A stretch of 64,000 bases of DNA. It comes from Candidatus Aenigmatarchaeota archaeon. Its GTDB lineage: Archaea; Aenigmatarchaeota; Aenigmatarchaeia; QMZP01; QMZT01. Position numbers and translations under genes: made by a program. The notes below the pieces were generated by a model that ran no database searches, had not been told where the DNA came from, and was given only the letters and a program-made list of their open reading frames with translations. This document shows, one piece after another, positions 1 to 49,224 of this stretch (within the stretch, counting starts at the first letter, position 1; every line of letters begins with the position of its first letter). The stretch lies in NCBI GenBank assembly GCA_963726265.1, contig CAVSBQ010000002.1, positions 736,001 to 800,000 on the forward strand. The letters run 5' to 3'.

Positions 1-177
1 ACGTTCCTGGAAAGGGAGAAGGCGGCGACGGAGAACAAATTGAAGGAGGCGCAGAAAAAATATTTCGAGAAGGGCGCAATCTCCAAAATGGAATACGACA
101 TCACGCTGGACAGGCACAGCAGGAAGCTCGCCGAAATAAAAAAGGAGCTGTCTATACTGAAGGCGAAGGCTCGCTGA
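1..177 (+). CDS. 3' end of a gene truncated by the window edge; helical C-terminus with SHOCT-like motif
   Basis: Frame 1 is open from base 1 to TGA 175-177: TFLEREKAATENKLKEAQKKYFEKGAISKMEYDITLDRHSRKLAEIKKELSILKAKAR. It overlaps the end of the convergent 152..625 gene by 26 nt. Confidence 0.75.
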   Translation, partial: TFLEREKAATENKLKEAQKKYFEKGAISKMEYDITLDRHSRKLAEIKKELSILKAKAR

Positions 178-625
178 CCTTGTTCAGCTCGTAGAATTTC
201 TGCCTGGATATGACTACACCTTTCGTCACGCCGTCCTTTTCCAGCTCCGTCAGGTATTCGCTGCATCTCGTTCTCGACAGATTCAGCTTGACGCTGAGGT
301 CGGACGCTGTCAGCCGCTTGTGCTTGCTGAGCGTCTCTATCACAATCCTTTTCATCTTCAGTTTCCTTATACTGTCGGATTTCGACCGACTCAACGGGAC
401 TAGCGATGACTTCAGGTCATCGACGTTTTTTTCAAGATTTCTTGTGAACTTGCAAATATCGTCAAGACGTTCAGTGATGCCCGAGTTCTTCAGCTCTTCG
501 GCAATCATCTCCCTTATTTTTCCCTTCAGGTATTTTTCGCGCTCCTCTTGAGCGATTTTTGATATGTCTGAGATGTAATTTTTCTTCCCCTTCCCGACCT
601 TCCTGTCCTGCAGAAACCCGAACAT
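152..625 (-). CDS. Winged helix-turn-helix transcriptional regulator with N-terminal coiled-coil
   Basis: C-terminal KRIVIETLSKHKRLTASDLSVKLNLSRTRCSEYLTELEKDGVTKGVVISRQKFYEL has a wHTH pattern. TTTAAA lies 24-29 nt upstream of the ATG. Confidence 0.8.
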   Translation of the reverse strand: MFGFLQDRKVGKGKKNYISDISKIAQEEREKYLKGKIREMIAEELKNSGITERLDDICKFTRNLEKNVDDLKSSLVPLSRSKSDSIRKLKMKRIVIETLSKHKRLTASDLSVKLNLSRTRCSEYLTELEKDGVTKGVVISRQKFYELNKVSEPSPSV

Positions 626-770
626 GCTATTGTATTGTCGATCGACAATTTAAACCTTAGTATAACTGTTAATTTTTTATCCTATATATAATCCGACAGT
701 TACGTATACTATTAGTGTTGTACACTAATGGCCATTAGCGTATGACTAACTTGGGTTGGGTTCAGTTTCT
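626..770. promoter_or_regulatory. Divergent AT-rich promoter region with several dyad-symmetric sites
   Basis: TTTAAA 649-654 and a TATATATA run near 683-690. Perfect palindrome ATTGTCGATCGACAAT 634-649. Inverted repeats TAACTGT/ACAGTTA 663-702 and ATTAGTGT-n3-ACACTAAT 711-729. Palindrome CTAATGGCCATTAG 725-738. Confidence 0.7.
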
Positions 771-1970
771 ATGAACGGCGCGCCTCCGCGGGAACAGATA
801 ATAGAGCTCCTTAAGAAGCATCCGGAAGGCCTGACTATCACGACTATTTCTGAGTTGACCAGGCTCCACAGGCACACGGTGACCAAATACGTCTACGAGC
901 TGAGGGGCGCGGACATCATCCACGAGAGGGAGATAGGCCCCGCGAAGCTGTGCTACATGAAGGACGGCCTCACCAAAAAACAGGAAAAGCAGACCATGAG
1001 CAGGCTCAACAACCACAACATGAAATCGAGCCTGGGCAGCGTGGGCCAGATACAACTTGTCGCCGTGTTCATGTTCCTTGTGCTGGCGCCGGCGGCAGTA
1101 ATAACCGCCTACAACCTTACGAACACGAGCGAAAACACGTCTTTCTCCATGGAGGGATACATCACAGCGAACAACGAGGTCACGTCAGACGTTAGCGACG
1201 GTATGCTGAATGAATTCTGGATGAACATCACCAACGGGACCTTTGGGGAGAATGCAACCAACGAAACCCTGCCTCCGGGGGAAGGAAGCCCGCTCCCGCC
1301 GCAGGACGCAGCAGAGCAGACGAATGAAACAGGCGGAAACGCAACTGTCGATGTCGACGAAACGTTAAACGCAACAAATATCACGCAGCCTGAGAATGAG
1401 GCGAATGAAACCCTTAATATAACCGAGCCATTGAACGAAACCAATGTCACAGTTTCCAATTCGACAATAATAATTTCGGACCTCACCAGCCCGTTCGAAG
1501 TTAACGTCACCGAGGAGTTCAGCATCAAAGCCGTGATAATGTCCCTTTACGGAAGATCGGAAAACATAAGGGTGAATTTATCCGCGCCCGCATCTTTTGA
1601 GGTCGCCAATCAAAATCAGACAATACCATTTTTAGACGAGAACACATCCGCGGAGTTCGCATGGAACGCCACCGCGAGTGAATGCGGCAATTACACGCTT
1701 GGCGTGCTCGCCGAAAGCGACACTTCTTCCGCTTATAAAAATGTTGACGTGTTTGTCGTGTGCCCCGTGGAAAACGTCACGCTGGAAACAGAGACAATCC
1801 AGGGCGACGCCGAAGTGGGCAAGCCTGTCGTATGGAAGAAGATAATCACGGTCAGGAACCCCAACAGGATAAAAGTAGACAACGTCCAGCTCGAGACGGA
1901 AATCCCGGCGAAGGCCTTCAACGCGGAGCTGAAAAAACTAAGACATGTTTTCGGGAATACCGTGACTTGA
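756..1970 (+). CDS. Giant protein fragment 1: winged HTH, hydrophobic helix, Asn/Thr/Glu-rich spacer, Ig-like domain (likely start ATG 771)
   Basis: HTH REQIIELLKKHPEGLTITTISELTRLHRHTVTKYVYELRGADII; hydrophobic LVAVFMFLVLAPAAVITA (~1056-1110); many NxT sequons after it. Confidence 0.75.
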   Translation: MGSVSMNGAPPREQIIELLKKHPEGLTITTISELTRLHRHTVTKYVYELRGADIIHEREIGPAKLCYMKDGLTKKQEKQTMSRLNNHNMKSSLGSVGQIQLVAVFMFLVLAPAAVITAYNLTNTSENTSFSMEGYITANNEVTSDVSDGMLNEFWMNITNGTFGENATNETLPPGEGSPLPPQDAAEQTNETGGNATVDVDETLNATNITQPENEANETLNITEPLNETNVTVSNSTIIISDLTSPFEVNVTEEFSIKAVIMSLYGRSENIRVNLSAPASFEVANQNQTIPFLDENTSAEFAWNATASECGNYTLGVLAESDTSSAYKNVDVFVVCPVENVTLETETIQGDAEVGKPVVWKKIITVRNPNRIKVDNVQLETEIPAKAFNAELKKLRHVFGNTVT

Positions 1971-4900
1971 CATCCCGGAAAGGGAAAGCAGGGTTTTCGC
2001 GGGCTTCACCGAAAGGTTTAACAAAAAAGTAAGCAGATGGAAAGAGGGGACGATGGAGGCGGGCGAGGAGGTCGCCTATGAACTCGGGTATGAAACACCT
2101 GCCCCGCAAAAGGAGGAAATCGAAGAGTACGCGGAAGACGGATGGAAGAAGGAAGTCAGAATAAGCAGCGATTTCGAAGAGGAACATTACAGGAACGTCA
2201 GCGTCACGGTCACGCTGCCCGAGGATATCGATGCTGAGGCCACGATAACCGAGGTCTCGGGCAAAAAAGCATTCGCTGCATGGTGAAGAGCCGAGTTTTC
2301 GAGATGAAGGGTTTCAGGCGGCATGGGCGTTTACTGGAAAGAGCGGGAGCGAAAACAGCCCTTCAGAAGGGATTGACGTGACGCAGGACCCCGTGCATGA
2401 AGTGGAGTTCGCGGATTCTGACGGCGACGGCCAGGCCGACGCCGTTTCATGGAAAGTGCCCCAGCTCTCGGAGCAGACTTACGTGGTGAAGGAGAACGAA
2501 AACAAGATAACTGAAGTTTACGTCGAAGCGCAGAACGGACAGAGAGCCGACATCACGCCCGAGATTATCGAAAAAGCCGACGGCCTTTACGGCATAAAGC
2601 TCGGCGCGAAGAAAAACTTCAGGGCAGGCGCATACAAGCTGGTGATAGTGTCCGGCGACAAGAAAGAGGAGATATGGTTCAACTGGGGTCTGATTTCCAT
2701 AAACACAAGGAGGAGCATCTACCATCCAGGCGAAACCGCGGAGATAATAATGGTCGTCCTTGACAAGTACGGCTATCTTGTCAAGGAGGCGGACGTCACG
2801 CTTGAAATCACCAGCCCGTCCGGAGACAAGACAACCCTGACCACTGCAGCAGGCGAAATCATAGAAAACGGGCCGGGCGTTTACACCGCGGCTTACGATG
2901 TCAAAGAGGAGGGCGAATACGCGCTCTTCGCCAAAAGGAACGACATGGCGAACGTCGAGATAGCGTCCTATTTCGATGCGGCCGCCTTTTACGAGTTCGA
3001 CATAATCCGCAATACACCGGTGACGATTGATCCGACTTCAGGGCCCTTCGAGTCCAACATAACCGTCAAGGCTTACGTTCCGGCTCTCATGTTCACATTC
3101 AAGGAATATCTTCCGAGGGAATTCGAGGTTTTCGACACAGATGCCATAGTCACGGATGAAGGCGAATACAAAGTGCTCACATGGAAAAACGTGACGGACG
3201 GCTCAACCGTCTCGTATGAATTCAACGTCCCGCCCATCTGGCCTTACCTTTACGCCATGGGCCCGGCGAAGGTGATATATAGCGGGCTTTTCGGTGAAAT
3301 GGAATTCACAGAAGCAAGACCATGGATGCTTGCGATCGACCCGACTTATGCATCATATTATCCTTCCGGTTATTCGCTCGTCGGCGACACAGACTACATT
3401 TCCGGCACCATCACTAACCTCAATGCCAACGACGGCAGCTACATGACCTTCCGGCCGTATTACACATTCGATGAAACCACGAACACCAGGGAAGCGATGA
3501 TTACCTACAGGTCCAATACACTGGGAGACAACGACCAGCTGCACTATAAATTGTGGAACGGCAGCATCCAGTCATGGGGAAGCGAGCAGCAGATGAACGA
3601 CGTCGGCGGAACGATAACCGGTAGCAAGGTTGTCTATTGCCCGAGAAGCTCCAGGTACTACGAAAAGATTGCGGTGGCCTACGATGCGCAGGCAAATCCC
3701 GGGTCGCTGGACGCATTCGTATGGAACGGTACCGGATGGACCGATTACGACAACATATTCACGAACATGTCGTTGAATCAAGACGATGCTGTCGCATGGG
3801 ACATAGCCTACGAATCGCTGAGCGGCGATGCCATGTTCATCTACGGCAGGAACTTCACGACATCGTATCTGCCGCGCTCGCAGATTGGCTACAAGACGTG
3901 GAATGGCAGCGCGTGGTCGAGCGAGATGAAGTTCAACCTTTCTACCGATCTCAATGCCTTTTCATGGATAGACATGGTCCCGGACCCTAATTCGGATTAC
4001 ATCGCAGTCGTCATGTTTCAGAACAGCGTCTGGGACAGGTACGCCCTGATATGGAACGGCACGAATTTCATATCCAACACGACCCTGACCACGACCGGCG
4101 GCGCGCAGAACGAGTCCGCCCAGGCGATAGCGTGGGAAGAGACCACAGGCGACGCGATGTTCGTCTGGGGCATTAACACAGCGTCCATCATAAACTATAC
4201 TAAATACTCGAAAACGACCGGCTGGGGTGAGATGCTAACTGCCACCAAGACCGAATGGGGCTCAGACCTCAATTTCATAAAAATGAAAACGCGGCCCGGA
4301 ACAGACTATATGATGCTTGCCGGCGTCTCGGACAACTACGATCTGGATACCATGTACTGGGACGGCACCTCATGGGACACGACGCATCTGGAGCATGACA
4401 GCGGTGTCGGCGACAACTCGGATTCATCCTACAATTTCGATTTTGCCTGGCATCCGGACGGCTCGAACTACGGCGTTCTTGTCTGGTCGAGCAACGTTAC
4501 AAATTCCTTGAACTACAGCGTCTGGGACACTGGAGCTTGGATGCCAAGTAACGCCTCATACAGTGGGGTATCTAGGGCGATGCAATTCATTAAAAATCCG
4601 AGATACACGGAAGGCGATGTGCTCATGCTCGGCTGGGCGGTCAATATAACTTCGTATACCGGAAGGGAGATGAGATACGACGGCGACCTGCAATTCACCG
4701 CAAACGGGACTGTATTTTCCAACAACACCAATTCCTCTGAGTTCGACAGGCATTTCCTCGCTTTCAGCAATTTCGGCGACCCGAACAGCGCGCAGGCGGT
4801 CGTCGAATTCGTCGGGACCGGCGAGAACAAGCCGTGGGACGCGGTCAACGTTTCTGTCGACGCGAGAAGCACGATTGCCGGCAACGTGACGATACAGGTT

Positions 4901-7900
4901 TTCAATTTCCTCACGGGAGCGTATCCTTCATCCGGAAATGGTTATACAACGCAGGCGATATCATCAGGCACGGACACAATGGTAAACAGATACATAAGCA
5001 CCAATGCGAACGACTACAAGAACGATACCTACAACTGGAAGGTGAAAGTCACCTTCACCAACACGACGTATTACGACCCGTTCAATTTCAGCATCGATTA
5101 CATTGTTTTCAACGCGACCATCCCAGACCTCTACCCGACGAACGTTACGGTGCACAACAACGTCACTGCAGTTTATTCAACGCTTTTCGGGACCGGCGAC
5201 CCGCTCGATATAAGAGTGAACATAACCAACTCGAAGCCGGCAACGCCGCTGACAGGCAACCTCACCATCAACATAACCAATTCCACAGGCTACTCATTCA
5301 ACGTCTCCAGGAAGGAGGTGACATGGGCCGCTGCCGGTTCGACGCTGACGAACATGACCAACATCTCCACTGCCGGATGGAACACCGGCAGCTACAATGT
5401 CAACGTAAGCATTTCGTGGTATGACGGGGCGCCATATTCCACTTCGGTCATGTACTATGAGCTTTTTAATCTGACCAACTTGACGGCAAGAATTTATCCC
5501 AGCCCCGGCCTATGCCTTGGAGAAATCGATAATTTTAACGTGACCATTGTGAGCAACTGGACATCCACCATCACGTTCAACATAAGCCGGGTCACACCCT
5601 CCAATTTCACGGTGAGTCCTGTGTCGAAACTGATGAACGCCTCTTTCGAAGCGTCGAACACGACCAATTTCACCGTCACCGTCCCGGCAACCGCAGGAAG
5701 ATACACGATATACTTCAACGTCTCTTACAGAGACCCCAACAATTACAACAAGTCCTTCATCATCAGCAAGGACGTGTACGTGCCGTCGCCGCGCATAACA
5801 GTTTACAGGGAAACGCCGCCGAAAATCGCGAACGCGACCAATTTCAATTCCAGCTTCGTCATCCACAACCTCGAGTGCGGTCCGGCACAGGACGTCTATT
5901 TTGTGGAGCACATCCCAAGCGGATGGTCCGTAATTTCCGCGCCGGGCAATTACAGCATAAATACGAGAAGCGACGGCATCACCGACATAACTTGGTACGT
6001 TCCATATCTCGGCGTGAACGAGTTCCAGATGGTAAACTACACAACCCTTTCGCCTTCGTCCATAACCACGGCGACTTTCGGCAAATGGAACACTTCATAT
6101 CACGACATCGATGGCATAGAATATAATAGCAGCGAGGCATCGACGTATGTCGTGACGAGTGATACCTACGATTACGCCCATTTCTATTTCACGCTGACCA
6201 TGAACGAGACCAACGAAACGAGGGTCCTGCCGACGAACGTGAGCCAATGGTTCATAGTCACGGGCACCAACGTAGGAAGGGCGACTGCGGCGACTGGAGA
6301 ATGGAACTTTACGGTGAAAATACCGACCGGCTGCAACGTGACCAACAACGGGACGGCGACATCATGGGACGCGGGAGGAAGAACGCTGAACTGGACGCTG
6401 AATGAAGACGTGCCTGTCGGCGGCGTAAAGAATTTCACTTTCAAACTCAACTGCACGCAGGACGCGAACGAATACGACCTGCTCCCGACGACGTATTCGA
6501 TACAGACAGGCGAGCTCGAGTATACCGATTCGGTCTCCTATACCGATTACGGAGGCAGCACGACGCGCTCGAACTTCTATCACCCCTTCACACCGGCTCC
6601 GACCGATTCAGCGAGGATAACGAGGTTCGTCTGGTACCTGACGAACGTTGCGCTGGACGCTGGCGAGTATTGCCGTTTCTGGCTGTTCAATGACTCCGGC
6701 ACGGGCAACCTGACGATAAAAGACAACTGGGTCGGCACCGGCGGAACGCAGTACTCCCAAATGGTCGACGAGGACCCGGCCGACTATAACAAGGAGCAGT
6801 TCACCACATTGCCGAACCACGAGCTTCATATACAGATATACGCCCAGGCTAGCTCGGCTACGGCCGAGTACTGCAGGATGACGAGCATAATGTACAGGTG
6901 GAACTGGGGCGGCTACACCACGGAGCAGCAAGGTATGTTCTTCAAGGTCAGGCGCAACACCGAGCCCAAGATATCCGCCTGGAACGTCACACCGGCGCAG
7001 GGCCAGTGGGGTCAGCCCTTCAACTTCACCATAAAGGTTTACGACCAGAGGAATGACACCATAAACGTTTCCCTGTGGTCAAGGCAGGCCGGTACGAGCA
7101 CGTGGAGCATGATAAACTTCACCCAGACAACGAACAGCATCTCGAATCAGTCCATAAATTTCACGCAGCGCTTCTCCTGTGCCGATGCCGACAAGCAATA
7201 CGAATACAAGATTCGCGCAGAGGACCCCTACTATTTCAGGAAGGAAACGCCCGTCGGCTATTACAACGTGACCAGAGACAACGTAATCTTTGACATAATT
7301 TCAGGCCACGGCTCCGGCGCGATCGCCAATCGCAGCTCAGAAAGAACGAATCTCACGCTCCGCCTGAGGATAAGGGACGAGAACGGCTCTTACCTCCAGG
7401 GGCTTAACACCACGCTTTACATATCCCAGCTGGGAACACTTGGCGGCACAATCCTCTGGGACGGCGGCCAGGTCTTCCAGACCAACGCCGCCGGCAACAT
7501 CACATACAATTTCACGGCCGCCGACCACTGCGACAACGAGTCGACGCCATACACCGAAGAAGAATACGAGGTCGGGCCGCACTGGTGGTACGTGAAGATA
7601 AATTCGAACGAAGTCTGCTACAAGCAGACCAACTCGACAGTCGAGGCGGGCGAATACGGCTATTACAATTTCACGACAATAGGCGAGCTGATAAACACGA
7701 TAGTAGCGCCGACAGGCGGAACGATAATACAGCAGGGCAGGGCGAACGTTTCGATAATGACATACATATACAACTTCTGCGAAGAGGCGATGAAAATAAA
7801 CACGACCCATGTCACATTCAATCTTTCCACCGTTGGCGCCAGCTACCTCTGTTCCAGCATCCAGAGGATAGGCGAGAACGTCTACACGTGCACTTGGCAG

Positions 7901-10900
7901 ACTCTCAACAGGACGAACGGCATGTACAACTTCACCATGAAATCCTACGAGGACAACTATTACAACGACACGGTGACTGAAGTTAACGCCGTCGAGATAA
8001 GAACTGTCCCGATGCTCAGGGCCGCGAATGCCACCTACAGGACCGAATCTTGGTCGAGGATGAGAAACTATTCGGTGAACGTGACCGACAACCTCGACGA
8101 CACGGTGAACGTTACCCTTTGGCTCGCAGTCGGCGCCATCGAAGAATCATACGGAAGCCGCTGCTGCGGTCCGAACTGCCCTTCCAACCCAGTGAACTGC
8201 ACTAATGTTGTTCTGAACTGGACCAACATAGAGCTCAACACCAGCAAGCCATGCGAGACCTATGCGGACAAAACCGTGAGATTCTACTTCTCGGCAGAGG
8301 ATACTGAAACTTACACTTATGACACATCAGTCGCCGCTGGCGACTACATAGGCAACAGCGACACGATCAACATGGAAAAGGCCAACACCACCATCGAATA
8401 CGTGGAAGGCAACAACAGCTTCACCGGCGGGGCGCCGGTCTGGTTCAAGCTGAGGGTCAACGACACCGACAACGGGAGTTCCGTTTATATCAGGCCGTCT
8501 TCCGAGCATCCGCTGATATATTTCAACGTAACTACAGACGAGAACGAGAAAGAGAGCTTCGTCTACGTCAACGACACGCGCACGGATTCGGCTGGCTACG
8601 CGAACGTCACCTTCACTCCCGACGGGAGGTTCAGCCTGGGCAACATGACATGGCGCGGCTACGTGCACCCGGGCGACCTCTGCTACAAATACAACATTTC
8701 GAACAACTTTACCGTGGAGATATTCCTGAACTGGCCACCGATGTTCGCCAACATGAGCGTGAACAACAAGACCACGGACAGCAAGGGATGGGGAGGCGGC
8801 TGGAACTTCTCAGTCGAGGTGAAGGACCACGGCTCGGAGGGAGGAAGCCTGAACGTGACCCTGCAGCTCGACACGAAAGACGGCTGGCGCAACATAGAGA
8901 CGAAAAACTGCACGTCCTGCCTTTTGTGGACAAATATAAACTTCACGGATGTCCGGCTCAACTGCTCGGACCTGAACTCTTCGGCGCGTTTCAGGTTCAA
9001 CGTCACGGACAACGCCAACAACGAGAACGGGACAGGCGTCTACGGCACGTTCGGCGTGCTTCCCGATTCCGTCGCTTTCGAACACGTGCGCGGCAACAAC
9101 ACCATAGCCAACAGGAGCGGCTCGCAGAGTGACCTTCTCGTGCTCAGGCTTTACGACCAGAATAACAACACGTACCTTCCGGCAGGAGCGAACGCGACGT
9201 TATGGGTGAGCTGGAACTATTTCGCTTATGACGACGGCTTGGCCGTAAAAACGAATGCGACAGGCCACATAAACAGAAGCTTCGACCCCACGTGCGACAG
9301 CGAAAGCGACTACGAATACGAGGCAAGAAACCAGATATGGCGTGCACAGGTTAATTCGTCGGATACCTGCTACTACCCGAACATAAGCAGCACGTATTAT
9401 CTCAACGTCATGGGCGACCTTAATCTCACGATAATCAAGCCCGACGGCTCGAACAACTACACGTGGGGCGACAATGTTTTCGTCCAGGGCCAGCTCAAGG
9501 ACGACTGCGGCAACACGCTGGACTATGCGAACGTCGAGTTTAACATGAGCGTAGGAAGTCACAGGTACAATTACTCCAACGTCCCCAACCTCGGAGGCGG
9601 CTTCTACCAGGGCGACTGGAATTCCGCCGGAGCGGCGGAAGGCTGGTACAACGTGACCATGTGGGCCAACAAGACTTACCAGCCGAATCCCAACTACAGC
9701 TATTACTACGTTAACCAGACCACGATAGTCCCGCCGTACACGTTCTACCTCAAGACGATACCGATACTGAAATACGCGAATGTCACGCCCAGGCTTGACG
9801 GCTGGGGTGCCGTATATAATTTCAGCGTCAACGTGACCGACGAAGCCGGGGATAACGTAACCGTGATATTCGAGAGGAAGAAATACGGCGTAGACTATTC
9901 CCAGGTCGGGTCTTCGCAGAGCTGCATTTCATGCACGAATTACACGATGCACTGGAACGAGACCTACATGTGTGCCAACCTGAGCGGCAACCCGACGTTC
10001 TATTTCCAGTTCACGGGAACGGACGAGATCGGAAACGAGCGGAAAACACAAACGGCGACTGGCGATTACGTCAACAACGACAACACCTACGTCTTGGATA
10101 AGGACGACGTGCAGATACTTTATTTCGCTGGCAACGAGAGCAAGGTCAACAGGTCAGGAGGCAACTTCACGTTATCCCTGATAATCAACGACACTGACAG
10201 GAGGGCGTACGTCAGCGATTCCGAGGCGACCGCATACCTCAACATAAGCACGAACTCTAGCAACCCCAATTCGCAGAACCTGACCGAGGCGGTCAACATC
10301 ACCGACGGGACGGGCCATGTCAATTTCGACTTCTCGCTCAAGGGAAACTGCAATTACCAGGTCGGAAAGCAGCAATGGTACGGCTATGTGGGGAGCGCAG
10401 ACACATGTTACAAGACCGCCATATCGCCTTCGTTCAACATAACGGTCTTCGGCGACCTGAACGCCAGCATAAGACCGGACAACTACACCAAACACCAGGA
10501 GGAAAACGTTTACATTTACGTAAACATCACGGACGAATGCGGCCATCTTCTATCAGGCCTGAACATATCCGTCCTGATGGTCAAGAATTCCACCCTGAAT
10601 TACACGTGCGGCGACATAGTGGACTACAACAACGGCACCTACCGCTGCAACTGGACGACCACCCAGGCCATGCCAGTTTACAAATACGGCGTCTGGATAC
10701 AGATGAACTCGACCGGCTACTACAACAACGACACGGAATTGCACAATGACGTGGTTTGGCTGCAGAGCTACATAAACAACGCACCCGTTTTCTCAAGCCC
10801 GTCATTCATGCGCGAGGGATGGGGCGCTGCCACGAACTTCAGCGTGCACGTCGACGATCCGGACTACAACAACGTCACCGTCTGGTTCTGGACCTCGGAT

Positions 10901-13900
10901 ACGGGCTCGGAGCCATGGACCCTGAGAAACTACACCAACTGCACGCTTTGCGCCAACACGTACGTGAACTTCTCGCTGTTCCACAACTGCTCCTTCCTCG
11001 GCAACACGTATTATTTCAAGTTCAACGGCACCGACATGAACTACAGCGGCCAGTACGACCTCTCCGGCACGTCGAGCTCGCAGACCTACGATGTCGAAAA
11101 GGATAACGTGAGCGTTTCATTCGTCGCAGGAAGCAACAACGTAGTCAACCGTTCCGGGACGCAGTTCACCAACGAGACCATGATAACCAGGGTCTACGAC
11201 ACCGACAACAAGACGTACGTGGGTTCCGGGGTTTACGGTAAGCTGTGGATCAGATATAATGTAAGCGCTGGTTACGACGGAGGCCTTGAAAACACGACTG
11301 ACGGCAGCGGTTATCTGCGCTTCAACTTCAATCCCGGCTGCGGCTATACAGTCGGCTTCCATAACTGGACTTCGGGCACGACAGTAAACACGTGCTACGA
11401 CGAAGAGAACATGACAACCCCCTCGAATCTCACGATAATCGGCGAACTCATACACACGTTCGACAACGCCAGCTGCGGCGGCAAGGATTACTGCCTGGAC
11501 GGCGAGAACGTCACAATATACATAAACATTAGCGACGACTGCAACGTCTCCGTCTCCGACGCCAGCATGAACATATCCGTTTCGCACGATGTATTTTCGG
11601 CGAATTGCAGCAGCGTCCAGGCGCTCGGCAGCGGGCGCTACAACTGCACCCTTAACATGACCAGCCTGCCCGGAGGCTACTACAACGTCACCGCCGCCAG
11701 CGCAAGGACCTATTTCAACGCGAATTCGACGAAGTTCGTCAACGCGTTCTTCAGGCAGGTCGCGCCATCCCTGAACAACGAGAACGTCGACCCCTCCTCC
11801 ACCTACTGGGCCAGGACCGTTGCAGGCGGACCCAACTTCGCATTCCACGTCAACGTGAGCGACGATGACGACACGCTCACGCTTGAGCTCTGGGAATACA
11901 AGAATTCCACCAGCGGCCCGTGGCAGCTCGCCAACTCGACAGTGCTTTCCGACAGCGTGGGCTATAACGCAACGCGTATCAGGACGTATTATTCCTCTGA
12001 CATAGGTATCTGGTACTGGAAGTTCAACGTCACTGACCAGAGAGGCCTCACATACGAGACCGCGAACCACACACTCGAGGTCACGAAGAGGGCGCTCAAC
12101 ATAAGCCTTCTGGCGGGCAACGAATCGAACGTGACGAGCGTGGGCACCAACAGCACGGAACTGGCCGTAAGCGTGAAGGACGCCGTTGACGGCCAGAACG
12201 TCACGCTTCCCACGTACAAGAAATTCTGGGTCACCACCAACGGCGTCAGCTGGGGTCCGGCGCAGGACATCTCGATTCCGGGTTTCGGCTACATGAACAG
12301 GATATTCGAGCCCGACTGCCCGACCTATTACACCGGAAGGCAGCTGTGGAAGGCGGGCGTAGCCGGCCATACGCAATATTATGATGCCAATTCGAGCAGC
12401 TACGTGCTGTATATATATTCGCAGATGTACCTCAACGTGACGTATCCCAATAACGTGTCCTTTGTCAAGGACAGCTGGGTTCTGATAAACGGGACCATCA
12501 TCGACGAGTGCAGGAACGTTTCCGCCGCGACTGTCAAATTCATATCAGTTAACCAGTATGGCACGGATATTTCGCCGCCATGCACGGCAAACAACTACAC
12601 CGGAGGCATATACAACTGCACGCAGGACATGACCGGAGAGGATTTCGGCCTGAACGCATGGTACAACATCACCATGAACGCTTCGCTGGCGTATTACAAC
12701 ACGACGAGCATGACCTTCCCGCACAGGTACAGGCTTGCTTCTTACCCGGACCTCACCTCGCCCGAAGTCGATCCGCCCGGCGAGGGATGGGGCTACAACT
12801 ATTCCTTCAACGTGACGGTCAACGACCAGGATTCCGGCGACGTCGTGAACGTCAGCTTCTGGTCCGCTTCAGCCTCATCAGGCCCGTGGACTTTCCGCGG
12901 CTCGCAGAATTGGACCAGCGACCAGAACGACCACAAATTCGAGTATCGCCAGGCGTTTACCTGCAGCGATTACACGGCGGACTCGAATCACAGGCTCTAC
13001 TACAAATACAACGTCACCGACACCATAAACTTCACCGACGAGACGAGCCCGACGAATTTCATAGAACTTCAAAAAGACGACGTGTGGTTCGCCAACGTGA
13101 CTGGCAGCGGCATAACCATAAACAGGGAGGGAACGGACACGGGCAGGATAGGCGTGCAGGTTTATGATGACGACTCTTACAGCAAAAACAAGCTCGGCTC
13201 CGGCATAATGGTTTCGTTCTGGCTCACCAACGACTCCGCTAATTACGCTTTCAATCTCACGAACACGACCAACGCGAGCGGCTACGTGTTCTATGATTTC
13301 GAGCCGACCTGCAGCTACGCCGCCGGTTCGCAGCTGTGGTTCGGGGGGACGGAAAATTCGACCTGCTACAAAATGACAAACCAGAGCCAAGGTTCGCAGA
13401 GTCTCGTGGTCCGCGGTCAGTTCAAGAACAATCTCCAGACGCCGGCCAATGGGACGCGCTTCAACGTGACCAACGGCATAACAGTAAGGTTCAACATCTC
13501 CACGGACTGTAGCAACGAGGGCATAGTCAGCGGAGCGACGACGAAAAGCGTGACGCTCATCCATAACCAGACCGGCGCTACATCATCCTGCGTGACGGTC
13601 AACGACGAAGGCAACGGCTGGTACAACTGCACCTGGTCCTCGACAGGTCAGCCCGAGGGCAACTGGAGCATCAACGTCACGACGGGCAAGAACGACTACA
13701 ACCCGAACACGACGGTATGGCTCAACAGGTTCTTCCTCGACAACCGCGGCCAGGCCGCCGAAAACCAGACCTTCGCCCCGTCGCAGGGCGGCTGGGGCAC
13801 GACTTATACTTACAATATCTCCATAGCAGATCCTGAAGGCGACACGGTGACATGCGTCCTGTGGACCAACACCACGGGCTCCGGATGGATAAACAGGGGC

Positions 13901-16900
13901 AGCAGCGCCGTCGCCGGTTCGGGCAACTGCTCGGTGCAGGTGAGCAACTTCAACTACACGGACGTCGGCGCCTCCCAATACAGATTCGCAATCAATGACA
14001 CTTACAACGCGCTTGAGACCGCGAATTTCAGCGGGCCCGTGATAAACAATGACAGCGTTACCGTAATCCACAGCGCGGGCAACAACACGAACGTCAACAG
14101 GAGCATGGACCAGACCACGCTGCTCGGGGTGAGGGTCAACGACACGGACAATGGCCAGCCTACATCCGGCATAGACACGACTTTCTGGGTATCATATACC
14201 AACAATTCCGTGGATTACGACACCGGTTTCCTCAACCAGACCTCTTCGGACGGCTACTCTTATTACAGTTTCAACGCGACATGCGGCTACACGGTCGGCG
14301 TCCACAACTGGAAGGCCGGCGTGACGGATGGCATGATACAACAAGACTAATTCCTCGACCTTCACCGTCAACATAACCGGAGACCTCATACCGACTATCA
14401 TCAGCCCGCTCGGAGGCGTTGCAGGCGTATACCCGCGCGGCCAGAACATAACCCTGCGCGGCTATCTCGCATCGGACTGCCCCTCCGAAACCATGACTGG
14501 CACGCCGTCGACTATGAGATATTCCAACAGCTCGGGCAGCTATTATTGCTCCAATGTCATCGACGACGGCGGAGGCTACTACAACTGCACCTTCAACACG
14601 TCCTCGCTGGCGGTGGGCTGGTATAACCTGACCATGAACTATTCCAGGCAGCATTACAACGCGAATTCGACCACGAAGACCAGCGCCTTCTTCATAGAGA
14701 CCGCGCCAAGGCTCGCCGTCCCGAACATAAGCAAGACACTGGGCGGCTGGGGGGAGACTTACATATTCTCCGTAAACGTGAGCGATGAGGACAGCGATAA
14801 TGTAAGAGTATATGCATGGTACAGGAAGCTTCCAAGCGGTGCATGGACCCAGATAGGCTCCTACAACCAGACCAGCGGCATGAACAAAACCGTTACCTTC
14901 ACCACCTCCTTCCAGTTCACGGACATGGGCAACCTGACGTTCAAGTTCAACGTCACGGACGACGCGGACACCCCCGTTTCTGGCGGCACGCAGTACACCG
15001 ACGAAATCCAGGCGGGCTTCAATTTCACGCTCGAAGCCGACGACGTGACTTTCATTTATGTTGCCGGCAACGAGACCACGATCAACAGGGTCGGAGCTAA
15101 CACCGCCACATTCACACTCTCGCTTTATGATACCGACGTGGGCGCTGCTGTCACGATGAACGAGAACGGCACGTTCTGGGTCACGACGAACGAGAGCGAC
15201 CCAAATTCATGGAGGAGCGCCACACAGAAATTCTTCGTCACAACGCTTAGCTACGACTTCAATCCCGACTGCAATTACCAGACTGGCAAGCAGAAATGGA
15301 AAGGAGGTCTGATAAGCGGCGGCTCGGGCTACTACAAGAACACCAACTCGTCCATCTACAACGTCACCATAACATCCGAATACACTCCATACATATACTA
15401 CCCGAAGGGCAGGAGCTTCGACAGGGATAATCTGTCGATGACAATAACCCTGAGCATGAACCTCACGGACAACGAAGCCGCCTGCGGCCTGGTCAGCGGC
15501 GCCACCGTAATGTTCAACGTCACCAACACCAGCTACGTCCGCCAGGCGACCGACTACGGCACCGGCTGGTACAATTACACCATACCGCAGACAGACTTCG
15601 CGGGCTGGAGCTACGGTTGGTACACTCTTCAGGCAAACGCGACGAGGCAATATTACCCGACCAACGTAAGCACGACTTACCCGGTTCGTTCTATCTTGCA
15701 TCGAGGCCATCTCTCGGTTCGGCAACCTCTGCCAGAGGGTGTCCGTACTGGGGCTGCCCCGCGAACTTCTCCATCGAGGTCACGGACAACGACGGCGGCA
15801 ACGTGACGGTCTTCCTGTGGAAGAAGATAGACACGGGCGGCCAGTGGGAATACCTGGGCAACGCGTCCTGCGGTCCGTGCTCAAGCACGCCGCTGCAGAT
15901 AAATTCGTCTTTCGACTGCGGCGACATAGGAACCAACTACTTCAAGTTCAACGCCACGGACAACTGGAACTACACCGCCACAACCGGCGAAAACAGCAAC
16001 CCCTTCAGCGTGAACCCGAATCTCGCTACAGTCTCTTACGTCACGGACGACAGCATCAGCATGACTAGGGAGGGCACATCCGCCTACAATCTTACGGTAT
16101 TCTTCAACGACATAACCAGAAGCCAGCCGGTGCTTACCGGAACGAACGGCACATTCTACGTGACCATGGACGGCACCAGCTTCGGCTTCGATAATGAACA
16201 CCACGACCAACTCCAGCGGCCACCTGAATTACCAGCTCGGGCCCAACTGCTCGTATTCGGTCGGCCTGCAGAGGTGGCACGCTGTCCTTGATAATGATAA
16301 TTGCTATTACGACGCTTCGCCTTCACCCGAAAACTTCACCTTCACCATAGCCGGCCAGCTCAAGAGCAAAATCGACACGCCGGCGCAGGGCTCCCAGTAC
16401 CTTGCGACGAGCCTGATTCCCATAAGATTCAACGTCACTTCCGACTGCATCTCTGAAGAAGGAAGGATATCGAATTCCAGCACGTCGCTCGAGCTTTATT
16501 CGCCCACCGCCGAGTACCAGCAATGCACGCCACTTTACAACGAGAGCGGCTCCAACGCAGGCTACTACAACTGCACGTGGGACTCGGCAGGCGACCTGGT
16601 TGGCATGTGGGGCATAAGGATTAACGCCAGCAAGACAGGCTATAACATCAATTCTACCCTCTACACGAACTGGATAAACCTCACCAACTCCGCGCCAGAG
16701 GGCAGCAACATGGACGTAACGCCAGACCAGGGAGGATGGGGGAGCATTTTCAACTATTCGATAAACGTTTCTGACGCCGACAATGACAACGTCAACTGCA
16801 CGCTCTTCGTATCAACTGACGCGGGCCTTTCATGGACCCAGAAGGGCTCGATGGTAGTCTACGGCGGGCATGACCTCTGCTGGGTCGAGGTCAGCGATTT

Positions 16901-19900
16901 CAGCTGCCTGGATGACATGGGAACCGACAACTACTTCAAGTTCACGCTTTACGACACGAAGGTGCAGATTGAGACAAGCAACATGTCCGGACCCAACATA
17001 ACCGTCGATTCCGTCAGCATAACGCATCTGCAGGGCAACAACCAGAACGTGAACAGGACTGCTCAGCAGATAACGCTCAAGGTCAGCGTCAACGATACAA
17101 CCAAGGGCCAGGGTATCTCATCCGTGCCCGCCTATTTCAACATAACGCGCGATGGCCAGAATTACACCTATCTTTACGAGGCGACTACCGCCTCGGGTAA
17201 TGCCACTCATACCTTCACGCCAGGCTGCGACTTCAACGCGACGCTGCAGAAATGGCACGTCTTCATAAACGACACGTGCTATGCCAACACGAGCAGCTCG
17301 GCCTTCAACATGACCGTATACGGCAGGCTAAACAACAGCATATTGCAGCCGACGGGCGGGGAATACCTGCGCGGCAGCAACGTGACCATACGACTCAACG
17401 TTTCGGATTATTATTGCGGCCAGCTGGCCGCGTCGGTGCTGCCGACAACGATAAACATATCCTCCGTAAGCCAGCTTACTTCCGTCACCTATCCGTGCAC
17501 GCCCATAGTCAATGACGGCGGCGGCTACTACAACTGCACCTTCAACACGTCCTTGATGAACCCGAGGGGCTACAACATAAACGCTTACACCTCAAGGACC
17601 TACTTCAACGCACACAACTACACGATCACTTATACCGCCGGCCAGCCCAAGGGCTTCTTCGTCGACACGGCGCCTCTCCTCACCTATCCGAAGCTCAACA
17701 CGACAGGCTACGACGGCGACGCGGGCGAGAACGGCTCCTGGTCCGAGCCGAGAAAATTCACGGTAAACGTCACCGACGAGGACGGCGACGTATATGTCGC
17801 CGTAAGGCTGTGGAAAAGAGATTACACTGTCGGCTCGGGCTGGGGCAGCTGGCAGCAGGTCGGCTCGGCAAAGAGTTTGAACACTGAAGCCAATAACACA
17901 CTCGTCGAATTTAACGAGGCCGGCAACCTGACGTCTCCTTACAATCCCGATGGCGACCTTGGAATATGGGAGTACAAGTTCAACGTCACCGACAACCCGA
18001 CCATGCCAAAAACCGGCGGAACGACCTACAGTTACCAAATCAACGGGAGCAACTACACGGTCGAGAAGGACGACATGGAGATACATTACTACAGCGGCGG
18101 GGAAGGAAATATCGTATGGAGGAACGGCTCAGATTCAATCATACTCTCCGTGCAGGCATGGTCAGTCGACCAGCAGAAATATATCGACTCCGGCGAGGCG
18201 GACGCCATGGTGTGGATAACAAAGGACCATTCCACTTTCGAGAACGTGACGGCTCCGGGATACCTATCTAACCTCGGCAACGGCACCATCAATCACACGT
18301 TCTTCCCCAACACAGGAGACTGCGCCTACGACGTCGGCGTCCAGTACTGGATAATAGGCGTGGAAAACAACGCCAGATTCAAGGACACGAACTCGAGCGG
18401 CAACGAGAACGTCAGCATATGGACTTTCCTGAATGGGTCCATAAACTCTCCTGACGGCGAAGTCTATCTGAAGGACCCGAACATCAACGTTACCTTCAAC
18501 ATGAGCGTCTGGGACGAGTGTAACGAAGGCGTAACGAGTCCCGACGACGTGAGCATAACGCTTACAGAAATCGAAGGCACACAGAAATACGCCGGCATAA
18601 CTTCCATACAGGACCTCGGAGGAGGGGAATATTTCTACAACTGGAGCACGGAAAACATCGAAACGCTCGGCATGTACAACATGACATTTGCCATGAGCAA
18701 AAATTATTATACCGACCTTTCGCTTTTCCGCAATCCCGCATTCCAGCTGACATCAGCGCCTCAACTATCGTTTAACGTAGACCCTCCGCTTGAAACGTCA
18801 GGCGAAGGCGGCTGGGGAGAGGACTACGACTTCAGGATAGCGGTGATGAAATCTGACGGCCTTCCGTTCAACGTCAGCCTCTGGTACAAGCACAACCAGT
18901 CATCGGAATGGACGCTGCTGAAGATGGTGGAATTGATCAGCGAAGGCTGGAGCAATCCGAGCGACTTCTACAACATGCAGTTCAACTGCACCGACATAAC
19001 GCCGGCGAATGACAACGCCTCCTACAAGTTCAACGCGAGCGACCAGTTCGGCTACACCGCCGAGCTGCCGGCAATAAACTTTACCATATTCAAGGACGAC
19101 GCCGCCGTTTATTACGACGACGCGGGCTCCAACATAATCATAAACAGGGAAGGCTCCTCCACCGGCCTGTTCAGGGTCAGGATAAACGATACCGACAGGT
19201 CACTTGTCGGCGTAGGAAACAACATATCGGGCGTATTTTACGTAACCACAGACAACGTAAACTATCTCACAACCTACCTCAACAGCACTAATGCGGATTC
19301 GAGACTCGTACTGAACTTCGACCCGAACTGCTCGCACGGCTACGGGCCGCAGAAATGGAAAGGCGGAACGTTCGGCGACACATGTTACAAAGACGTGAAC
19401 GTGTCAGAGAGATCATTAACAGTCAACGGCACGCTGAAGAACAACATCCAGCAGCCCAACTGGACCATCGGCCAGCCGTCGTTCAACGTCACGGACCAGA
19501 TCCTGCTCAGGCTTAATACGACCTCCGACTGTTCCGGCGAGGGAATGATATCAGGCAGTTCGGTTAGCTTGTATCTCAAAGCCCCGAATGGAAGCGTATA
19601 CTCATGCACGCCGGTCAACAGCGAAACAGGCGCTGATGCCGGGCGTTATAACTGCACTTGGAATTCGAATGACAAGCCGGAGGGCAACTGGACCGTCAAC
19701 ATGACGTCCACGAGGCAATACTTCCTGCCGAACACGACGACTCTTACCAACTGGTTCTGGCTCGAGAACAAGAACGCGACCGAAACCGACCTCAAGGTCA
19801 CGCCGCCACAGGACGGCTGGACCAGGCTCTACAACTACACCGTCCTGGTCAACGACGCCGACTCCGACGTGGTCAACTGCTCACTATATATCAACAAGTC

Positions 19901-22900
19901 CGACGGCCAGGGCTGGCTATACAAGGGCTCCAACATCCTCTACAACGCAAGCGGCATAGTGAACAGGAACTGTTCCGTCACCGTCCATGACTTCACGGGC
20001 GACGACATCGGCAACAACTCCTTCCGCTTCCTCATCAACGACAGCGAACCCGCGAACGTCCACTACACCTCAACAGCGTATGGCCCGTATCTCGAGGAGG
20101 CGAACACGACAGTGGGTCACCACGCTGGCAATGGCTCGACCGTGAACATATCCGACTATTCCGAGGATTACACCACGCTTCTTTCAGTGCAGGCCAACGA
20201 CACTGACAATGAATCCTTCGCCCCGAATGCCAACGTGACATTCTGGATGTACTATAATCTGACAGCGATGGCACCGGGATATGTCACGCCGACGAACTCG
20301 ACGGGCCATGCCAACTACGATTTCAACCCGGACTGCAACTACTCGGCCGGCAACTGGGAATGGTTCGCTGGCGTGACCGACGCGTATTACGAGGACAAGA
20401 ACACGACGAGGTTTAACGTAACACTTTTAGAAGACATAAACGTGAACCTGATTTCACCGCTTGGGCTGGAGGATGTCAGGGGTAACAACATAACCATAAG
20501 GTTCGGGCTTTATGACTCGTGCAATAGGAACATAACAGGCGTGTCTGGCATCAACATAACGATGTCAAATGATATCACGGGCCAGATATTCAACTGCACC
20601 AATATCATTGGGGAAGGAAACGGCGTATACAACTGCACGTTCAACACTTCGGCCAACCCGGGCATCATGCCAGCGGGGAGTTATGGCATAGAAATAAATT
20701 CATGGAAGCAGTATTACAACCGCGACAATACCAGCCTGCCTTTTATAGGTGATTCCCAGTCTTTCTACATAGAAACTCCGCCATCGCTTTTCAGCGCGAA
20801 GGTGAATGCGAGCCAGTTGGGAGGAAGCGTAGGCTCGTGGTCCGAGGACTGGAACTTCAGCGTAAACGTCACGGACGAGGACGGCGATGAGGTCACGGTC
20901 GTTTTGTGGGAAAGGAAGTACACGTCAGGCTCGGGATGGAGCAGCTGGCAGCCGGTCGGGAGCACAAGCTGCGGGGAGGGAACGGAAATTTGCAACAACA
21001 ATGTCGTTTCCATACCTGTTGATGGTTATACCCACTATAACGGACAGCAACCGACGACGGCGAATGACACTTGGTCATTCAAATTCAACTGCACGGATGA
21101 AGCCGGAAAACCAACTGAGGGCGGAAATCAGTACAGCTACGAAATATCGGGCTATAACTACACGATAGAAAGGGACGACATAAACATAACACTCTACGCC
21201 GGTTATAATACCACTCTGGACAGGAACGGCACGGCGAACTTGACGCTGTCGGTAATGGTCTATGATATAGACCTTGGAAGAAACCTGACCGGAGGCGAGG
21301 CCAAGGGCAATGTGTGGATAAGCAAGAACGGGACCAATCTGGAATACGTGACCCAGGTCAACGTTATCAACGGCTTATTCAGCTACACTTTCCAGCCCGA
21401 AGACTGCAATTACAAGGTGGGAGTGCAGCACTGGATAATAGGGCTAATCAATTACAACAACTGGTTCAAGGTCACCAACGCGACAATGGCCAACATAACG
21501 CTTTACGCCCCCCTAAACGGAACCATAAACACGCCGAATGGTGAGACATATCCCGGAGGGACCTATCCCGGGGAATATATGATCCCAATATGGTTCAGCG
21601 TCTTCGAGATGGATTGCCCTGCGAACTACGTCGGGAATTTGGATAATAAATCTCTGAAAATAAACCCCTCTGACGGAGATCCAAGTTATCCGACTATCCT
21701 TGGTAGCAGCATATATGATTGGAGCAATGGAAGCTACAATTATTCGTGGGATTCAAATAAGGTAAAGGAATGGTATAACATAACGGCAATTCTTGGGGAG
21801 CAATATTATTACCCGATTAATGTAACCAAACCGAATGCATTTGCACTTTCAAGTGCGCCACAACTTTCCTCGCCCTCGCACAGCATCAGCTATCCGGTTG
21901 GCGGTGACGGCGGCTGGGGGGAAACGCATAGGTTTACCGTCTATCAACAGGACGCGGACGGGAACAATCTAACTCTATATTTATGGTACAGGTTCACGCC
22001 ATCGGATACTTGGATTTTGCTTAACCAGACCGTTGTCCAGGGGGATCCTGGGCAGGCCACGCCGTATTTCTATGATTACAGCGGTTTCGACTGCTCGAAC
22101 ATAACGCCCCCCGGTGACAACAGCCAGTTCAAATGGAACGTCACGGATACGGCCAACTTCCACGACGAAACAGACGTGATTAACTTCACCGTCCTGAAGG
22201 ACGACGTGTCAGTGGATTATGTTTCGGGATTCGACCTGAACATAAACAGGGACGGAACCAACAGCGGGCTTTTCGTGGTCCAGATAAACGACACTGACAG
22301 GAACAATGTCGGCGTTGGAGAGGGAGTGCCCGGCATCTTCTACGTGACTACGGACGGAACGAATTTCCTCACCACTTATCAGAACGACAGCACGTCCGAT
22401 TCGATGCTGTCGCTTAACTTCGACCCGAACTGCTCGCACAGCCCTGGCATCCAAAAATGGACCGGAGGCGTCTGGAACGACACGTGCTACAAGGACAGGA
22501 ACATGACGGGTTCGCCGAGGGAGTTCACCGTATACGGCCAGCTCAAGAACAACATCCAGCAGCCCAACTGGACGAGCGGCCAGCCGTCGTTCAACGTCAC
22601 GAACCAGATATTGTTCAGGTTCAATACCACTTCGGACTGTTTGGTCGATGGGCTGGTAAACAACACAGGGACGTCCATATATCTGCATGCGCCCAACGGA
22701 AGCAACTACACCTGCTCGCCCATGAAAAACGAGACCGGCGTGAACGCCGGCTACTACAACTGCACGTGGGACTCCAGCGACAAGCCCGAGGGAAATTGGA
22801 CGCTCAACACGACCTCGGTTAAAACCTACTATTATCAGAACCAAACCATACTTACCAACTGGTTCTGGCTCGAGAACAAGAACGCTACCGAGACCGACCT

Positions 22901-41309: not shown

Positions 41310-41329
41310 GGTAAATCCGCCATGCGAAG

Positions 41330-47248: not shown

Positions 47249-47430
47249 CGCCGCAACACTAAATACCCATAATAAATAGGACATCCGTGCAAAAAAGCAG
47301 CTGATTTTTAGGCCGTTCCAACAAACGGTTAATGTTCCAGGAAGGGGGGTGGGTATTTAATAACCCCCCGGGAATAGTATATTTATATAAGTAATGGCCC
47401 TTTCATACAGGAAAGTAATGGCGTGGTCGC

Positions 47431-48093
47431 ATGAGAACCAAGCAGAAGATAACGGACTACAAGAATTTCTGGCTCATATGGATAAACTGCGCCGGCGGCG
47501 AAAAAGGGATATCGCTTTTTGAGATACAGACCAGCTGGGACGTGAAGACGAACTACCTCTACCACAACGAGGTCGGCCTTAAAAGCCCGCTCTTCCGCAG
47601 CATGACGAGGGAGAATTACATAACCAAGGAAGGCAAGCGGCTGAAGGCAAAGTTCGAGTGGATTCCCGCGTATGTCAGGGAGAAATACCCCGCGAAGGAA
47701 ACGAACGAAAGCTGGCTGCCCGATTTCCTGATAAGAACCAGGTGGCCGGCCGTCCAGAAATTCATGGAGAAATACCATGCCGTCCTTTTCGACGTGAAAA
47801 ACCTGAAGATTCTATACAGGAACGACAAGGAGCTCGTGGGGCGGTATGGCCCGCAGATATTCGCGGACGTTCTCCTTTACGTGCTCTTCTCGAACCTCAG
47901 GGTCTTCTGCAAGAAATACGAAGCCGACGTCGTGCTCCGCATGATTACGACGTCCATATCAATCGCCTGCGAGAGGGACATAATGAATTACATGCGCGTG
48001 ATCGACTCGAAACTCGGGAAGGTGGTCGACTTCCCCGTGCTCGTTCGCGACGAAAACGAGCTCTCGAGGATGCTGTGCGCACTCAAGTGGTGA
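47431..48093 (+). CDS. Hypothetical protein (220 aa)
   Basis: ATG-started ORF with codon usage like its neighbours and an upstream TATATTTATATAA. No motif recognised. Confidence 0.75.
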   Translation: MRTKQKITDYKNFWLIWINCAGGEKGISLFEIQTSWDVKTNYLYHNEVGLKSPLFRSMTRENYITKEGKRLKAKFEWIPAYVREKYPAKETNESWLPDFLIRTRWPAVQKFMEKYHAVLFDVKNLKILYRNDKELVGRYGPQIFADVLLYVLFSNLRVFCKKYEADVVLRMITTSISIACERDIMNYMRVIDSKLGKVVDFPVLVRDENELSRMLCALKW

Positions 48094-48153
48094 AGCAACG
48101 GCCAACGAAGCAAAGATTTAAGAAATAAAAACAAGGTATACGCAGAGGGTAAT

Positions 48154-48924: not shown

Positions 48925-48952
48925 TTTATAGAAACCTCGCGAAATTATCTAT

Positions 48953-49219: not shown

Positions 49220-49224
49220 TCGGG

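Follow-up and report, generated by a model that had tools for sequence, protein, structure and literature searches.

A winged helix-turn-helix domain fused to the N-terminal hydrophobic helix of an aenigmatarchaeal giant surface protein, with a predicted autoregulatory operator

DPANN archaea devote several percent of a 1-Mb genome to a single giant surface protein, for which a role in host contact has been proposed, and the literature searched holds no description of how such a protein is controlled. The window analyzed here, a 64,000-nucleotide stretch of DNA from a Candidatus Aenigmatarchaeota archaeon, carries the gene for one of these giants, and the chain begins with a helix-turn-helix (HTH) domain placed ahead of a hydrophobic helix. 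What is a DNA-binding domain doing at the head of a surface protein? An earlier note on this DNA had offered two answers: a doubly anchored loop that tethers DNA at a motor, or a membrane-bound HTH peptide that remains after signal cleavage and acts on the adjacent promoter. We favor a form of the latter, with a probability of roughly 0.55. The first ~113 residues would serve as an unusually large export signal, its cytoplasmic n-region being a sequence-specific winged-HTH (wHTH) autorepressor, and cleavage would leave a stub that feeds back on the gene. This reading names a regulator, predicts a 16-bp operator and a cut site, and comes with natural loss variants, and its predictions could be tested with a 90-residue protein and an oligonucleotide, without culturing.

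The leader and its giant chain

The deposited sequence has no stop in frame 3 from 750 until the TGA at 1968–1970; the ORF has 399 aa, and this one frame holds the ATG at 771, the HTH, an internal ATG, a GQ pair, and the hydrophobic helix (Table 1). The fusion of HTH, basic linker, and hydrophobic helix is real. The segment 771–1115 is matched in 15 of 60 relatives at 49–77% identity without a stop, over nearly full length in 14 and up to a contig end in one, so the homologs keep the fusion. Residues G92 and Q93 are invariant in 10 of 10 alignment rows, as are P107, I111, A113, and N115. Two artifacts were rejected: a chance extension of the ORF, by the retention of the fusion in those 15 relatives, and an indel between 960 and 1050, which the earlier note had named together with a stop as the event that would undo its claim, by independent contigs of three runs that are gap-free there (X1 902–1541, X2 916–1218, X4 707–1399).

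Table 1. Features of the leader locus and giant gene, in window coordinates.
Feature	Position	Strand	Basis
Divergent regulator, 157 aa: long helical N-part and C-terminal winged HTH (helix SRTRCSEY)	152..625	-	HTH_24
Palindrome TTGTCGATCGACAA, probable target of the divergent regulator	635..648	.	predicted
TATA-like box of the giant gene, TATATATA	683..690	+	predicted; conserved directly before CGACA in relatives
CGACA half-site directly past the TATA box, putative second site of the divergent regulator	694..698	+	predicted
Candidate operator of the fused wHTH, TGTACACTAATGGCCA at 719-734 plus overlapping near-palindrome	719..741	.	
Winged HTH, residues 1-63, recognition helix HRHTVTKY	771..959	+	Pfam, alignment, AlphaFold, Foldseek
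Basic linker helix, residues 69-85, containing internal ATG 1020 (M84)	975..1025	+	AlphaFold model, alignment
Conserved GQ ahead of the hydrophobic helix; near class III rules but departing from them here (SVG/QIQLV)	1044..1049	+	
Hydrophobic helix, final residues P-A-A-V-I-T-A; signal peptidase I predicted to cut after A113 (1109/1110)	1056..1109	+	predicted
N-x-S/T-rich linker and first Ig-like domain (about 1434-1643)	1110..1967	+	short-leader profile
Remainder of the giant chain, split by frameshifts; ends with a HerA/VirB4-like ATPase and coiled coil	1966..39600	+	

Residues 6–63 form a winged HTH in the AlphaFold model, which was computed from a 10-row alignment: a three-helix bundle followed by a β-hairpin wing (H6-16, H23-30, H34-46, E50-55, E58-63) at a pLDDT of about 90. 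Beyond it, the model places the linker helix and a long helix at residues 90–121. The Foldseek matches of the model are winged-helix proteins at probability 1.00, among them the archaeal centromere-binding protein AspA, which is the best (E 1.3e-4, TMq 0.47), and members of the MarR family. AspA (plasmid pNOB8) and MarR-type repressors (PDB 4rs8, 5k5q) thus have the winged-helix fold in common with the leader, but they are about 20% identical to it, soluble, and free of an export signal. In sequence searches, Pfam HTH_11 aligns to residues 7–46 with an E of 1.1e-4, below its cut-off, and no named Pfam or NCBIfam HTH family reaches its curated cut-off (HTH_11, 22.4 of 25 bits; ArsR/SmtB, 16.6 of 55). 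An atlas comparison returned only soluble HTH clusters with scores of 0.79–0.81, the best of which (0.81) is a lead only. The HTH-like domain that the earlier note had read in frame with the N-terminal hydrophobic helix is thereby borne out by the open frame, the contigs, and the structure search.

Downstream of the leader, the giant gene in the window falls into at least nine frame pieces that reach 39600. The frame breaks lie at 1965, 2338, 14334, and further on, to 36330. Among the indel rows listed, a base is absent from the contigs at 1965 and 14334 in three of four runs and at 2338 in two of four. Pieces of X1 are identical to the window over 830 nt, and X1 is therefore a near-identical strain. 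The early breaks are spanned by uninterrupted proteins of two relatives (G001 and G002), and the later pieces of the window are colinear with the final 4,270 residues of the G014 protein. The breaks are likely assembly errors. Three adjacent housekeeping genes carry no frameshift, and because these neighbors are unbroken, the giant gene may instead be truly decaying in this strain.

The complete architecture is seen in two relatives. The giant of G014 is a single 14,519-aa ORF with hydrophobic segments at 91 and 14,122. In G137, which belongs to another family, the single ORF is 14,236 aa long; its hydrophobic segments lie at 94 and 13,836, and a third one scores weakly. Both carry a HerA/VirB4-like ATPase at the C-terminal end. 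The ATPase region matches DUF87 and HerA_C in Pfam; its best NCBIfam matches are the DNA translocases CedD and HerA, both far under cut-offs, and its matches among PDB sequences are weak and HerA-like. In the window, a second hydrophobic segment lies at about 38434–38484, with the ATPase and coiled coil beyond. An HTH end and an ATPase end on a single chain, as the earlier note had it, is thus a fact in G014 and G137, together with the two-segment precursor topology, but it does not hold for the window as deposited, where the ORF stops at 399 aa; we infer the single chain for the window's genome from its relatives. Residues 222–291 of the window's leader ORF match a profile of 23 short leaders (described below) with an E of 9.6e-7, which suggests that its first Ig-like domain is weakly related to their C-terminal domain; the same profile has no match in the G014 and G137 giants. 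The G137 giant (locus L095) has at about residues 250–400 a region that resembles an intein/Hint insertion, ending in ...VWSSN.

Promoter and candidate operator

The intergenic region ahead of the leader is shared with a divergent regulator that matches Pfam HTH_24 with an E of 2.2e-8 and has homologs in 122 of 371 phylum genomes, many of them head-to-head with a leader. The recognition helix of these divergent regulators is invariant, SRTRC(S/N)EY. The TGTCG/CGACA elements between the two genes are retained at 13 of 13 loci whose leader lacks the HTH, and thus go with the divergent gene rather than with the fused HTH; the TGTCG/CGACA palindrome had been a candidate site for the fused HTH and was rejected on this count. 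The same intergenic region may be controlled twice, by the divergent regulator through these separate sites as well as by the wHTH. Across the phylum, both predicted TATA boxes are flanked by TGTCG/CGACA, even where no giant gene lies downstream.

A different palindrome goes with the fused HTH. With duplicate rows of one locus removed before counting and a search zone of 130 nt before the HTH, TGTAC-N6-GTACA at no more than one mismatch lies upstream in 38 of 48 leaders with an HRH-type recognition helix, 32 of them exact, against 3 of 1000 in a shuffle control; the motif was derived from the same loci, so the positive count is partly circular, although the controls are independent, and the genomes are related rather than independently sampled. 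By family, the site is found in 12 of 13 leaders of f1, 2 of 3 of f5, 2 of 2 of f6, 9 of 9 of f7, 12 of 12 of f21, 1 of 2 of f27, 0 of 5 of f18, and 0 of 2 of f40, that is, in six of eight families. The ten remaining HRH leaders, including all five of f18 and both of f40, stand at two to three mismatches.

Two sets of controls bear on the link between helix and site. The HTH-less set began as 20 loci with the divergent gene, mostly without a listed HTH neighbor; seven proved to be something else than HTH-less leaders and were dropped (two HRH-type, two NRN-type, three whose neighbors were of another kind or cut off), and 13 were kept. None of these 13 has TGTAC-N6-GTACA within 200 nt, the best standing at three mismatches. 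Paralogs with an NR(A/M)-type helix have a different palindrome in 12 of 12 cases and TGTAC-N6-GTACA in 0 of 12; conversely, the NR(A/M)-type palindrome occurs at 0 of 55 HRH genes. A pattern search for the site hit 66 of 371 genomes of the phylum. Of 12 sites newly fetched in this way, two lie 33 nt before soluble proteins of ~65 aa with the helix HRHTVTKY; no HTH was found near the other ten, which look chance-like. The site occurs once in four of five genomes tested and twice in one, and a regulon scan of genome G000 returned no exact and three one-mismatch sites elsewhere.

The window's own site, TGTACACTAATGGCCA, departs from TGTAC-N6-GTACA by two mismatches and is overlapped by a 20-bp near-palindrome, ACACTAATGG/CCATTAGCGT, at 722–741. 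This variant is real, because the X2 contig is identical to the window over 605–854. In the window and in family f18, TGTACA is replaced by TGGCCA. The central six bases vary by lineage and are often self-complementary (ATTAAT, ACTAGT, AATATT, GAATTC, GCTAGC, ACCGGT; L069–L076, L082–L100).

The location of the site fits a repressor. It lies 19–41 nt downstream of the TATA-adjacent CGACA in 33 of 33 cases among the rows listed. According to the accessible text of PMC4158304, the archaeal TATA box lies 26–27 nt before the transcription start, and repressors bound just past the start block polymerase recruitment in archaea; given this spacing and TATATATA, the window's site would fall a few bases past the predicted start. 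A σ70 promoter scan, which is inapplicable to archaea, gave no sites. Taking the comparative evidence together, the wHTH very probably binds TGTAC-N6-GTACA as its operator and represses its own promoter. Tandem ACA-N4-TGT units with 10- or 13-bp spacing surround the operator at L010, L061, L080, L102, L106, and L177, an arrangement that suggests several dimers side by side.

Fused, split, and HTH-less forms across the phylum

The wHTH is matched in 213 of 371 phylum genomes and, in a 50% library, in 766 representatives at E 0.001 and 32 at 1e-30. The named homologs belong to Ca. Aenigmatarchaeota, the group in which the window's organism is also placed. The wHTH occurs alone (65–100 aa), in short leaders of 240–440 aa that consist of the HTH, the helix, a linker, and one Ig-like domain, and fused to long proteins. 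In G120, G123, and G066, a short leader is followed directly by a separate ORF of 10,206–11,262 aa that carries its own signal and the same HerA/VirB4-like ATPase. A tree of 49 leaders holds 21 long forms, 24 short, and four of unknown length, where long stands for an open frame of at least 550 aa and most such frames end at contig ends. The fused or short state changes eight times on this tree, and at least four changes are forced by well-supported branches. From the split operons and these repeated swaps, it follows that the place of the HTH is at the operon's head, its joining to the ATPase chain being optional.

Leaders without the HTH were found at 13 loci in seven genera of four families. 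Their ectodomain is retained (E 1e-24 to 1e-31 in six of six tested) and is therefore not merely the sensor of the HTH. The wHTH may be a portable module, gained or lost with its operator, and a paralog with an NR-type helix and another operator heads a second operon of secreted proteins. This second wHTH–signal fusion, with the helix NRMTASKY and its own AT-rich palindrome (L173 in G002:C4, L174 in G014:C31, L017, L028, L029), stands before another run of secreted-protein genes; its proteins have 535 and 1,736 aa and one hydrophobic segment. The gene adjoining it presumably encodes a relative of ribosomal protein L11. In two close relatives only, leaders with the helix NRNTVTKY (L099 and L134 in G176, L113 in G177) lack the standard site and have a GAGTGCACTC palindrome in its place. 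The family wHTH also forms the C-terminal end of ~210-aa proteins that resemble restriction-type nuclease folds and occur in tandem ahead of a secreted gene (L135, L158). Genes that follow the leader often begin with two hydrophobic segments, KSxxGQ being repeated before the next (L040, L044, L130, L169, L171).

Fate of the hydrophobic helix and comparison with known systems

In a class I signal, a small residue at -1 and a small or aliphatic residue at -3 stand behind the hydrophobic core. The helix in the window ends in this manner, V-I-T-A/Y-N, where the slash marks the predicted cut. By a home-made cleavage rule that was devised after the leaders had been inspected, 41 of 47 leaders have a (-3,-1)-type end; among the controls, 14 of 138 internal helices have one and, in G000, 1 of 11 pilin-like signals. 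The same end recurs in HTH-less leaders and in downstream operon genes, and the unbroken apolar run is only 13 residues long in 15 of 47 leaders. Class I signal peptides have a short basic n-region, and substrates of signal peptidase I seldom have one as long as ~90 residues; the 47 leaders have 67–106 residues ahead of the helix. The proteases of G000 include a signal peptidase I (a weak match, under cut-off), an A24 peptidase, and an SPP-like protease. On the residues at the helix end, a signal peptidase I cut after A113 is probably favored over other routes.

Combined with the operator, this cut leads to the following scheme. The chain starts with the wHTH, the basic helix, and the hydrophobic helix, an order given by sequence and model. 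The wHTH, on strong comparative grounds, would sit on TGTAC-N6-GTACA, past the TATA box and at or after the putative start, and repress its own gene or operon. Signal peptidase I would cleave after A113, leaving a wHTH–helix stub in the membrane, while the ectodomain would be held by its C-terminal segment with the ATPase inside. The stubs, anchored or freed by a second cut near the GQ, may then pair on the palindrome. Since one repressor subunit would be made per giant chain begun, the outcome would be negative feedback on a ~40-kb gene. That the cut-off signal peptide of the giant is itself a transcription factor, each exported chain leaving one repressor subunit, has an even chance of being right. 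In short leaders, which have no second membrane segment, cleavage would free the Ig domain and so require a partner. The HTH peptide that the earlier note had imagined as a product of signal cleavage, acting on the adjacent promoter, gains support from the operator controls and the cleavable-looking helix.

Other fates of the helix deserve weighing. It could be a permanent anchor, as in an uncleaved transmembrane regulator of the ToxR, CadC, or ArnR type, the giant being a doubly anchored loop and the membrane-held HTH repressing or releasing the promoter according to the state of the ectodomain. All operator evidence is equally compatible with this, the hydrophobic run spans 17–24 residues in 31 of 47 leaders, and 24 of 49 tree rows are short single-pass HTH–helix–outer-domain proteins, the commonest type of transmembrane transcription regulator in the available part of PMC10269533. 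We consider it unlikely, given the conserved helix-breaker and Ala at the end of the helix, the 13-residue runs, the same signal end in HTH-less leaders and downstream operon genes, and the N-terminal Sec signal described for nanohaloarchaeal giants in the accessible portion of PMC10266531. A prepilin-type cut (A24, EppA-like) between G and Q would free a soluble ~92-aa wHTH and keep the helix as a pilin-like anchor of the mature protein. Class III signals of this type resemble the leader in having a Gln at +1 after a small residue and then a hydrophobic helix; in the text available for PMC4371748, EppA requires the +1 Gln, and its sites read KGQV or KGQI with a Glu at +5. A Q at +1 is present in 33 of 47 leaders, the window's among them, G000 encodes K(G/A)Q pilin-like proteins besides its A24 peptidase, stand-alone paralogs of 65–100 aa exist, and KSxxGQ recurs ahead of hydrophobic segments in downstream genes. 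This route is nonetheless quite improbable, as 14 of 47 leaders lack such a Q, K/R at -2 with G/A at -1 occurs in three of 47 (K/R at -2 in 14, mostly KS/Q), Glu at +5 in 0 of 47, and the signal-peptidase-I-like end of the leaders is rare in the pilin-like proteins of G000. The window's own SVG/QIQLV has no K/R at -2, and its GQ, which the earlier note had set before the helix with a class III signal in mind, is not a canonical class III site.

The wHTH could also hold the chromosome at the ATPase or at an attachment organelle, for AspA-like segregation or DNA transfer. AspA-type centromere-binding proteins act together with ParB and ParA at a partition site. A tether would agree with AspA as the top Foldseek match, with CedD and HerA as the best NCBIfam matches of the ATPase (far under cut-offs as they are), and with a MinD/ParA-family gene 47 kb downstream. 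Each point has its counterweight: the AspA match is that of a generic winged helix at 20% identity, the site is close to single-copy, separate chains carry the HTH and the ATPase in all three split operons traced (G120, G123, G066), 13 leaders have no HTH at all, and soluble paralogs share the same site. With fused and short forms swapping at least four times on the tree, the doubly anchored, DNA-tethering loop of the earlier note finds little room, and we regard a tether as very improbable. An equally slim chance is left to chains that mostly start at ATG 1020 without the HTH, or to a palindrome that acts as an RNA hairpin in the 5'-UTR. The internal Met is kept in 10 of 12 same-family (f1) leaders listed, with MK-S ahead of the GQ, and downstream genes begin MKSS...GQ, but leaders of f7 and f21 have no Met at this position; because of the resemblance to the downstream genes, the Met reads best as the former start codon of a secreted gene without the HTH. 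The window's 713–773 has a folding energy of -10.1 kcal/mol, a value for the native sequence alone. Operator variants, on the other hand, include mismatches that break the pairing, the same half-site change appears on both arms as for a DNA site, and the palindrome changes along with the recognition helix.

ArnR is an archaeal membrane-bound regulator and, like ToxR, TcpP, and CadC, shares with the leader a DNA-binding domain, one membrane helix, and an outer domain. The leader falls within the census definition of a transmembrane transcription regulator, a DNA-binding domain plus at least one transmembrane region. It differs from ToxR-type regulators in carrying as its outer part a structural protein of the cell surface that can reach 14,500 aa, in a helix that looks cleavable, and in its predicted target, which is its own promoter. 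It would probably act like an autoregulating membrane regulator but separate from its outer domain. In the available main text of PMC10269533, ‘Aenigm’, ‘DPANN’, and ‘signal peptide’ each occur zero times, and in its nine supplement files ‘Aenigm’, ‘Nanohalo’, and ‘Nanoarchae’ do not occur.

The giants themselves have the layout of known DPANN giants: a long ectodomain, a membrane segment, a HerA/VirB4-like ATPase, and a coiled coil. The available text of PMC10266531 describes the nanohaloarchaeal SPEARE, SVXNc_0300, and BNXNv_0298 as proteins of 8,880–9,409 aa with a plain Sec signal, and these share an export signal, an Ig-like ectodomain, one membrane segment, a VirB4/TraG-like ATPase, and a coiled coil; the aenigmatarchaeal giants, compared by described architecture only, reach 14,236–14,519 aa. 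The term ‘helix-turn-helix’ occurs zero times in that text. The nearest mechanistic analog found is the mouse mammary tumor virus (MMTV) Rem/Env precursor, from which a signal peptide of ~98 aa is cut and then serves as a regulator (PMC5371415, in the part available). No homology is claimed, and the viral case differs in being a eukaryotic virus with a Rev-like RNA regulator and p97-dependent extraction. If cleavage is true, the leader would be a signal peptide that survives as a DNA-binding repressor, a feedback whose analog was found only in a retrovirus. The literature searched, whose coverage stops short of most subscription journals, holds no description of a wHTH–signal–giant fusion; in the available main text of bioRxiv 2023.11.21.568195, ‘Aenigm’, ‘HTH’, and ‘VirB4’ occur zero times, although its supplements could list such proteins.

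Behind the giant, the block 39690–56183 is conserved in G014 too. Its genes encode a coiled-coil protein, a secreted Ig-rich protein of 1,972 aa, an uncharacterized protein of 220 aa, a MinD-like ATPase whose C-terminal tail is hydrophobic, and long coiled-coil proteins. This block could position the giant. Further downstream, at 56523–57449 on the minus strand, an HTH_20 domain is fused to an S_layer_C-like domain, and inspection by eye shows no obvious membrane helix.
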